Assembly (NCBI GenBank): GCA_951804945.1
Contig: OX638154.1
Coordinates: forward strand, 70,122,001-70,186,000
DNA from: Podarcis cretensis
Lineage: Eukaryota
Direction: 5' to 3'
Length of the DNA: 64,000 nucleotides
Below the pieces are notes generated by a model. The model was not told the DNA's origin and ran no database searches. It was given only the letters and a program-made list of their open reading frames with translations. Of this stretch, positions 12,975 through 41,933 are shown piece by piece. The number at the start of each line of letters is the position of its first letter. The stretch's first letter is position 1. A program made the translations under genes and the position numbers.

Positions 12975-13084
12975 GTGCAACAACAGAACACAGTGTATAG
13001 TAGTTACCGGGTCAGATGTGTTTCCTGATCCTTGTCCTGGAACATACAAATACCTCGAAGTACAATATGAATGTGTCCCTTACA
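12975..13084 (+). CDS. ADGRL2: Exon (110 nt): C-terminal half of the SUEL/rhamnose-binding lectin domain, (R)[36 protein letters not shown]
   Basis: Pyrimidine tract + cccag| acceptor and a|gtaagt donor; contains the [12 protein letters not shown] lectin signature. Not in the ORF track (no upstream start codon). Confidence 0.96.
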
Positions 13085-23894: not shown

Positions 23895-24649
23895 AATGTT
23901 CAAACTTTGCTGGTTTTACATTTGGTTCAATATGAGCAGAACTCGAAACCTTTCAATTTTATGAGCACTACCTCCCACATCTGTGTTGCCGCCAACTTGT
24001 AGAGGAAGAGAAAGAATTAAGCCTGAATGTTAAGGTGAACTGTGTGTGCAATTTGTAAGCAATCTATGAGATTGTACATCTTTACTGCTTACATGGTGAG
24101 AAAGTTAACGCATCAACCTTAACTTGTGATTTCTATGATTTTTAGAGCACGGGTGACTTGTTGAAGCCTTCACTCTTCTTAAACTAAAGGGTTTTTCTTA
24201 TTTAAAAAATGTATATATAGTGACATACATAATACATCTATATGTGCATATCATATTAATAGGTTTTTTTTAAAAAAAAAAAAGATAAAGTTGACAGGAT
24301 TTTGCTTGCGGCTTTGCAAAGGGAAGGATAGGTATATCATGCATTAGTCAAGTCTTTCATTATTTATTCAGGTTGACTAAGTGAAACTACATACGAGCAT
24401 TTTCAGGACTGCCTCTTTAACCTACTAAAATGATTGATCCATGTTCACTTATGTAACTGTAGAATCTTTCTCCTGCTAGGTTTTCCTGTTGTCTGTTTCT
24501 CTCTATCCAATGTAGTGCACTTCTTATTCTCCCTGTGTTTAACATCTTGTGAACTAATTTAATCTTCGCCTAATAGTCAATTTGTGTTAATCTTCTTCTT
24601 TTTTCCCTTGCACTTTTTTTTTTCATTTTTCTTCCGATGCTTGAAATAG

Positions 24650-24664
24650 AAGTGGAGCAAAAAG
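24650..24664 (+). CDS. ADGRL2: Alternative microexon (15 nt, KVEQK; or 12 nt from 24653, MEQK) between lectin and olfactomedin domains (latrophilin splice site A)
   Basis: Long pyrimidine tract, then ...gaaatag|aagtggagcaaaaag|gtaaat. Phase 1-1: tac a+aa gtg gag caa aaa g+tt ttt gives Y-KVEQK-VFVCPG, the known latrophilin insert. Confidence 0.9.
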
Positions 24665-25197
24665 GTAAATAACGTATATAGTCCCAAACCCCCACCCCCA
24701 GCTCCTTGTTATGTGCCTTATGGATGTTAACCTCCTCCACCCCTTCCCTTCCCCACAACACTCTGGTAACTATGGTGGTCAGCAGGATCTCATAAGCGCC
24801 CCTCATAAAGAAGTCGACTTTGCAGTAAACTGGCTGGGCTGCTGAACTGACTCGGCTACTTAAAGCAGGTGGCGGGATTTAGTGTCTGGTGTACCTGCTC
24901 CGGGACAGAGGCTCCCTTTTGCTTTCTTCCTCCCTTTCTTTCTCTTTCCCTGTCTTTCTCTCACCCTTGACTAAATCTTGTTAATGAACCCTCATCTTGC
25001 TTGGCTTCCAGAACCCACTCCATAGCATGCCATAATTACAGGGGTCCCTGGTCTGTTTCATCCATCGCTTTGGTTGTCCTTTATTTTTTTGTTGCTCCTA
25101 ATGAAGATCTGTGTATATATTTTACACACACACACGGGTTACACACACACAAACAAACCCCAAAACTAAAAGCGCATATCTATATATCTATATAGAT

Positions 25198-25384: not shown

Positions 25385-25826
25385 ATAGAGATAATATCAA
25401 GGCACTGTTGTTTTCAACCACACAGTTTATTAAAGTTTCTACAAGTTTTATGACTTTAAATCCATTGAAGTGTTGTACACCAGTTGAAAGGTCTGGAGAA
25501 TAAATCCTGTCTTCATCATAAATGCAAGCGTAGTTATCTGCTTCCAGATGCATAGATGCGCCATAGATGCGACCTTGGGTGATATTAGCGAAAACACTTC
25601 ACATACTGGTTACTATGGTAACTTTAAGAAGCATGGATGACAAAGGGTAATACATGCATTAATTACATATGAGGTACAATAAATATTGTTGCCAGTTAAT
25701 TGGATCTTTTCTTCTTTATTGTCACTTGTGATTTTTTTTACCTTGACTTTAATTGGTAGCATGCACATTTTATTTTATTGTTTTAAAAAAATAAATCTTG
25801 TCTTGCTTCTTCTCTGCGACTGCTAG

Positions 25827-26627
25827 TTTTTGTTTGCCCTGGGACATTGAAAGCCGTTGTGGATTCCCCAAATTTATATGAAGCGGAACAAAAGGCAGGT
25901 GCCTGGTGCAAGGACCCTCTTCAAGCTGCGGATAAAATATACTTCATGCCGTGGACTCCATACCGTACTGATACTTTGATAGAATATGCTTCTTTAGAGG
26001 ACTTTCAAAATGGACGCCAGCAGACGACATACAAGCTTCCAAACCGAGTGGATGGTACTGGATTTGTGGTATACGATGGTGCTGTCTTTTTTAACAAGGA
26101 AAGAACTAGGAACATTGTAAAGTTCGATTTGAGGACTAGAATTAAGAGTGGAGAGGCAATTATAAATTATGCCAACTACCACGACACTTCCCCTTACAGG
26201 TGGGGAGGGAAGACTGACATTGATTTGGCAGTTGACGAAAATGGCTTGTGGGTCATTTACGCCACGGAACAAAACAATGGGATGATAGTTATTAGCCAAC
26301 TGAATCCTTATACCTTGCGTTTCGAGGCAACGTGGGAAACTACGTATGACAAACGGGCAGCATCTAACGCCTTTATGATATGCGGGGTTCTCTACGTTGT
26401 GCGGTCCGTATACCAAGACAATGAAAGTGAAACTGGCAAGAACTCAATTGATTACATTTACAACACTCGGTTATTCAGAGGAGAATATGTAGATATCCCT
26501 TTCCCCAACATGTACCATTATATTGCTGCTGTGGATTACAATCCAAGAGACAATCAACTGTATGTGTGGAACAACAACTTCATCCTGCGATATTCTCTAG
26601 AGTTTGGTCCCCCTGACCCCGCTCAAG
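25827..26627 (+). CDS. ADGRL2: Exon (801 nt): olfactomedin domain, [14 protein letters not shown]...[12 protein letters not shown]
   Basis: ctag| acceptor and g|gtaggc donor; coincides with ORF 25847..26659; olfactomedin motifs [44 protein letters not shown]. Confidence 0.98.
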
Positions 26628-41894: not shown

Positions 41895-41933
41895 CTCCAA
41901 AAGCGAGAGAAGACATGCAGGTCTTACCTTAAG
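41895..41933 (+). CDS. ADGRL2: Cassette exon (39 nt) in the GAIN domain, LQKREKTCRSYLK
   Basis: ccaag| acceptor and aag|gtatct donor; phase 0-0; matches the 13-aa alternatively spliced LQKREKTCRxYLK segment of latrophilin-2; tctaac branch-point candidate at 41857-41862. Confidence 0.9.

Follow-up and report, generated by a model that had tools for sequence, protein, structure and literature searches.

The window analysed here, 64,000 nucleotides of Podarcis cretensis contig OX638154.1 (assembly GCA_951804945.1, positions 70,122,001 to 70,186,000, forward strand), contains 14 exon blocks of ADGRL2 (latrophilin-2), extending from the lectin domain into the transmembrane region. ADGRL2 is the host gene: the olfactomedin (Olf) exon is 100% identical to that of ADGRL2 from Podarcis, Lacerta and Zootoca (best 120 of 4,580 matches), and of the other Olf exons in the genome the two closest belong to ADGRL3 and ADGRL1. 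A microexon sits in frame between the lectin and olfactomedin exons, preceded by a tandem acceptor (Table 1). The lectin exon upstream is 110 nt long and matches mouse exon 8 in length and ends, and the flanking splice sites are a donor at 13084|GT and an acceptor at AG|25827. All coordinates of the first-pass annotation were borne out when the sequence letters were re-checked.

Table 1. Features of the ADGRL2 lectin-olfactomedin hinge (positions in the window)
Feature	Position	Strand	Remarks
ADGRL2 upstream exon	12975..13084	+	second half of lectin domain, ...ECVPY + 1 nt, phase-1 donor GTAAGT
Branch-point-like yTnAy cluster (putative)	24553..24591	+	A at 24557, 24562, 24573, 24590
AG-exclusion zone, long U/C tract	24577..24647	+	71 nt, ~77% pyrimidine
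UGC motif inside TTCCGATGC	24638..24640	+	-12 from microexon
Tandem acceptor TAG-AAG (NAGNAG)	24647..24652	+	second AG = Lys AAA / Val GTG codon boundary
15-nt microexon, splice site A, KVEQK form	24650..24664	+	= zebrafish adgrl2a/b 15-nt exon
12-nt candidate form, MEQK	24653..24664	+	= mouse Adgrl2 exon 9 by sequence
Donor GTAAAT (AAG|GTAAAT)	24665..24670	+	common to 15-nt and 12-nt forms
Olfactomedin exon of ADGRL2	25827..26627	+	Pfam OLF E 7.9e-83

The longer form agrees with the zebrafish exon at all 15 nt, and mouse exon 9 has the same sequence as its last 12 nt. As judged by this match, the exon is latrophilin splice site A of lizard ADGRL2. The three possible joins were re-read as VPY-IFVC, VPY-KVEQK-VFVC and VPY-MEQK-VFVC, in agreement with the claim that skipping and both acceptors preserve the frame. 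In a microexon scan of the window this site was the sole match on both strands and no match occurred in 200 block shuffles, with thresholds chosen knowing the target; identity to the fish and mouse exons is the stronger proof.

The signals described upstream of the exon were all present, namely the AG-free zone and the branch-point-like words ACTAAT (24553) and CCTAAT (24569). The last AG before the zone occupies 24575-24576, and among the roughly 4,190 gaps between successive AGs on the plus strand of the window, 39 are as long. The cluster includes AATTTAATCT, common to the flank of lizard ADGRL1, and may provide the branch point. The adenines at 24573 and 24590 would suit the AG-free zone better, whereas the one at 24557 precedes the AG at 24575 by 18 nt. 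The UGC reported 10-12 nt before the exon was found at that distance from the exon of the first acceptor, which places it 13-15 nt before the 12-nt exon; SRRM3/4 may bind there. A TGC between -20 and -6 is so frequent (912 of 4,162 YAG sites in the window and 3 of the 10 pyrimidine-rich ones) that it constitutes weak evidence by itself. In three public models (Podarcis raffonei, P. muralis and Candoia aspera) the protein starts with MLEIEVEQK, from an ATG overlapping the UGC (24637-24664, plus strand). These starts are probably annotation artefacts; their presence in lacertids and a boa nevertheless shows that the flank is conserved between them.

A genome search with the exon pattern returned four matches: the ADGRL2 exon, one each in ADGRL1 (L001) and ADGRL3 (L004), and L002, which was dropped as a chance match given its GAG acceptor and the lack of a pyrimidine tract. 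Relative to the Olf exon of its own gene, the paralogous exon lies 7.8 kb upstream in ADGRL1 and 3.2 kb upstream in ADGRL3. In all three lizard paralogues TAG-AAG precedes a 15-nt KVEQK exon. The second AG is fixed by the protein, because a phase-1 intron followed by a Lys AAA and a Val codon makes the exon start with AAG. Being forced by the codons, it provides no independent evidence of its own use, and the tandem AG, which had been taken as a sign of two acceptors, is thus a coding by-product shared with ADGRL1 and ADGRL3. Neither the tandem AG alone nor the UGC alone was retained as evidence, the former being codon-forced and TGC being common. The ADGRL1 and ADGRL2 flanks both carry TTCCGATGC at -12 while ADGRL3 lacks it; retention of this 9-mer between such old paralogues would favour a function for the UGC.

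The ADGRL1 microexon (G000:C2, ~43611885-43611910, minus strand) displays a triple acceptor AAG-TAG-AAG, and its third, upstream AG matches the 18-nt form 7a that accompanies the 15-nt form 7b of mouse Adgrl1. The ADGRL3 microexon (G000:C17, ~1520237-1520255, minus strand) has TAG-AAG and a previous AG at -73, hence an AG-free zone as long as that of ADGRL2. It has no TGC at -12, the nearest being at -25, which hints at a different regulation. The mouse exon tables include Adgrl1 forms of 18 and 15 nt and an Adgrl3 form of 15 nt only; no 12-nt form is included for either gene (PMC13108381).

Splice site A of Lphn2 has been documented in human (HsaEX0036234), mouse (exon 9) and zebrafish (DreEX0011656, DreEX0011677), and the lizard exon shares with these the gene, position, phase and exon sequence. 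The skip, KVEQK and MEQK options of mammals and zebrafish match those readable in the lizard sequence. In the corresponding section of the review by Moreno-Salinas 2019 (PMC6629964), the Lphn2 insert occurs in two versions, one as in the other latrophilins and one shorter, and the Lphn2-specific insert is present in 60% of brain transcripts and nearly absent from heart. In the part of PMC13108381 devoted to mouse exon 9 (12 nt), inclusion is about 96% in glutamatergic, 84% in GABAergic and 0% in endothelial cells, and the splicing factors are stated to be unknown. The 12-nt human exon HsaEX0036234 passes from a PSI of 0 with GFP to 91.87 with SRRM4, according to the data of PMC7935315. In the zebrafish tables of PMC12626424, adgrl2a DreEX0011656 shows a neural dPSI of +48.95 and an eMIC-mutant dPSI of -33.67 and is listed with two acceptors separated by 3 nt; adgrl2b has the 15-nt exon only, with one acceptor and an eMIC-mutant dPSI of -22.01. 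Direct data from the orthologues in human, mouse and zebrafish thus support the neural inclusion and SRRM3/4 control proposed for the lizard. The three-way choice, the neural pattern and this control had been presented as a new inference; for the orthologues they were already in print.

Li 2020 (PMC7195488) describes an insert of 4 or 5 residues, MEQK or KVEQK, that reduces teneurin affinity. According to PMC6629964 this effect was demonstrated for Lphn1, and the relevant part of del Toro 2020 repeats the Lphn1 result only; within these portions of the literature the effect is reported neither for Lphn2 nor for KVEQK compared to MEQK. The title of PMC12626420 indicates that removal of microexons in general results in minimal larval phenotypes.

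Two sources on Srrm4 concern other or unspecified Lphn2 exons. The 27-nt microexon is a second one in ADGRL2 (PMC12626420), and a remark in PMC11283458 on a 'Lphn2 microexon' after Srrm4 knockdown was set aside, since the passage leaves open which of the two is meant. Likewise, in five of the six files of the nSR100 knockout table of PMC4387716, the Lphn2 exons found are those of 27 and 45 nt and not that of splice site A. The pattern of the 27-nt microexon was not found in the window, where coverage of the gene ends before that region. A 39-nt cassette exon of the GAIN domain with an unusual AAG acceptor is located at 41895-41933 (plus strand); by length and place it is the orthologue of human HsaEX0036237, which is likewise SRRM4-responsive.

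To see which forms of the insert are annotated, we inspected a squamate set of 183 protein records (P0004-P0186), composed of matches and their cluster members, 4 of them unnamed fragments; two fish and a lamprey (P0001-P0003) were excluded. The set contained 110 records with the exon skipped, 55 with KVEQK (in 13 species) and none with MEQK; among the rest, 8 carried a gecko-specific insert, 4 started in the intron and 6 were without the region. Both skip and KVEQK models exist for Podarcis muralis, Lacerta agilis and Zootoca vivipara, at annotation level only. Many public lacertid models include KVEQK, contrary to the statement that predictors miss the exon. The reading of the element as splice site A stands through its match to the zebrafish and mouse exons; its MEQK form finds no counterpart in the 183 squamate records. 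The three-way choice holds for mammals, as described in the review, and has two acceptors in zebrafish adgrl2a, but in the squamate set no MEQK was found against 55 KVEQK.

A second search was performed with a query beginning at EQK, so that neither form was favoured, and the best 120 of 1,300 matches were considered. Among these, 34 of 36 insert-bearing squamate matches carried KVEQK, the other two were intron-start models and none carried MEQK. The KVEQK:MEQK ratios among the matches listed were 53:1 in birds, 12:1 in turtles, 2:0 in crocodilians, 4:0 in caecilians and 1:8 in rodents, and both forms were annotated in Numida (a bird) and Gopherus evgoodei (a tortoise). These are automated protein models and not transcript counts, with many rows per species and three rodent species sampled. 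The turtle MEQK rows are models found in UniRef only and could be projections from mammals; annotating an exon of 12 nt may also be more difficult than annotating one of 15 nt. In addition, the zebrafish adgrl2a exon is given as 12 nt in PMC12626424 and as 15 nt in PMC12626420, where the mouse exon has 12 nt; with such conflicting labels for zebrafish, annotation does not fix the ratio of acceptors.

The possibility that the element is a chance look-alike, an intronic stretch never spliced in, was refuted by conservation and annotation and deserves practically no credence. It is true that TGC and AG-poor tracts are each common and that one of the four genome pattern matches looks like chance. 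Nevertheless, identity to the zebrafish exon over 15 of 15 nt, the presence of the exon in lacertid protein models and the paralogous exons ahead of the Olf exons of ADGRL3 and ADGRL1 all argue against it.

As to the use of the two acceptors, lizard neurons could make much KVEQK and much MEQK in a balanced three-way switch whose 12-nt form was overlooked by annotation. Both forms are described for mammalian Lphn2, both acceptors are listed in zebrafish adgrl2a, and MEQK is annotated beside KVEQK in Numida and Gopherus. Very short exons are also hard to annotate. However, the same kind of annotation gave MEQK in 8 of 9 rodent matches listed, and yet none in the squamate records, the caecilians and the crocodilians and a single one each in birds and turtles; moreover, TAG is normally favoured over AAG, the order of preference in the part of PMC2699507 used here being CAG > TAG > AAG > GAG. 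We thus hold a balanced switch to be unlikely. At the other extreme, the second AG could be merely the Lys(AAA)-Val(GTG) boundary and never be used in lizards, leaving a strict choice between skipping and KVEQK. The same TAG-AAG before the lizard ADGRL1 and ADGRL3 microexons, for which the mouse tables give no 12-nt form, the single acceptor listed for zebrafish adgrl2b and the absence of MEQK among the squamate models examined are all in line with this. Against it, human, mouse and rat models as well as zebrafish adgrl2a use the distal AG, which is also found in annotations of a bird and of turtles, so that lizards are bracketed. A complete silence of the second AG therefore appears improbable as well, and the occurrence of both forms in Numida and Gopherus favours some use of MEQK in lizards. 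Between these extremes, we consider it fairly probable, from the acceptor preference and the annotation, that the first AG dominates in lizards and that MEQK is a minor form. The human and mouse exons stand against such a preference, since their main form uses the distal AG although AAG is normally the weaker acceptor.

Taken together, these results show a conserved in-frame microexon in the lectin-olfactomedin linker, built like an SRRM3/4 target. Neural microexons dependent on SRRM3/4 (nSR100) share a length that is a multiple of three below 27 nt, a pyrimidine-rich AG-free zone and a UGC near the acceptor. The lizard exon has 15 or 12 nt with the frame kept, 71 nt free of AG and a TGC at -12; it differs from the class by its tandem acceptor, and SRRM3/4 dependence is known from its orthologues only. 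By analogy with these, the exon would be skipped outside neurons and included in neurons through SRRM3/4. SRRM3/4 would act via the UGC to promote recognition of the 3' splice site of an exon too short to be defined unaided. The step through the UGC stays an inference, because the zebrafish flank was scored without a UGC (PMC12626420) and the motif, present in 74-79% of SRRM3/4 microexons, helps without being strictly needed, as stated in the section concerned of bioRxiv 10.1101/2024.09.17.613571. The spliceosome would then favour TAG, the first AG, over the weaker AAG 3 bases downstream. Compared with alternative NAGNAG acceptors of the EI class, TAG-AAG is a plausible tandem, without GAG and with an in-frame shift of 3 nt; in contrast to a clean single-residue deletion, the phase-1 intron makes this shift swap KV for M. 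By analogy with Lphn1, the insert would make the Lec-Olf linker longer and lower teneurin affinity.

The feature is real and already known: it is a described ADGRL2 event, in a lizard whose relatives have the exon annotated. As found, its import is small and consists of the extension of this event to one more lizard. Acceptor preference may have shifted between lineages, as suggested by the prevalence of KVEQK in non-mammalian models and of MEQK in those of human and mouse and in the majority of rodent ones. For human and mouse the catalogued exon is the 12-nt form, and MEQK predominates in rodent models, whereas only KVEQK was found in squamate models, a difference at the level of annotation; zebrafish adgrl2a, with both acceptors, complicates the contrast. 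In a bolder and rather doubtful scenario, an old wobble site has flipped: amphibians, lizards, turtles, crocodiles and birds would make mainly KVEQK and mammals mainly MEQK, with linkers differing in teneurin affinity, so that a synaptic receptor was retuned on the mammalian line. If the ratio truly differs and the inserts bind teneurins differently, this would offer a clear-cut example of NAGNAG wobble that affects function and, on the same condition, of evolutionary tuning of a circuit-wiring receptor. No comparison of KVEQK:MEQK between mammals and other tetrapods was found in the literature searched; the primary study of Boucard 2014 may bear on it.

The gecko-specific insert belongs to 8 models of Paroedura picta. 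These carry 11 residues, KILSSFSLGLL, resembling the translated end of the intron (about 25794-25826, plus strand) before the Olf exon, and judging from this resemblance P. picta apparently possesses an alternative acceptor further upstream at this hinge. Outside squamates, a cod ADGRL2 model (P0001) and a lamprey protein (P0003) score as if they had repeated olfactomedin segments, the lamprey protein with two Olf copies in tandem.
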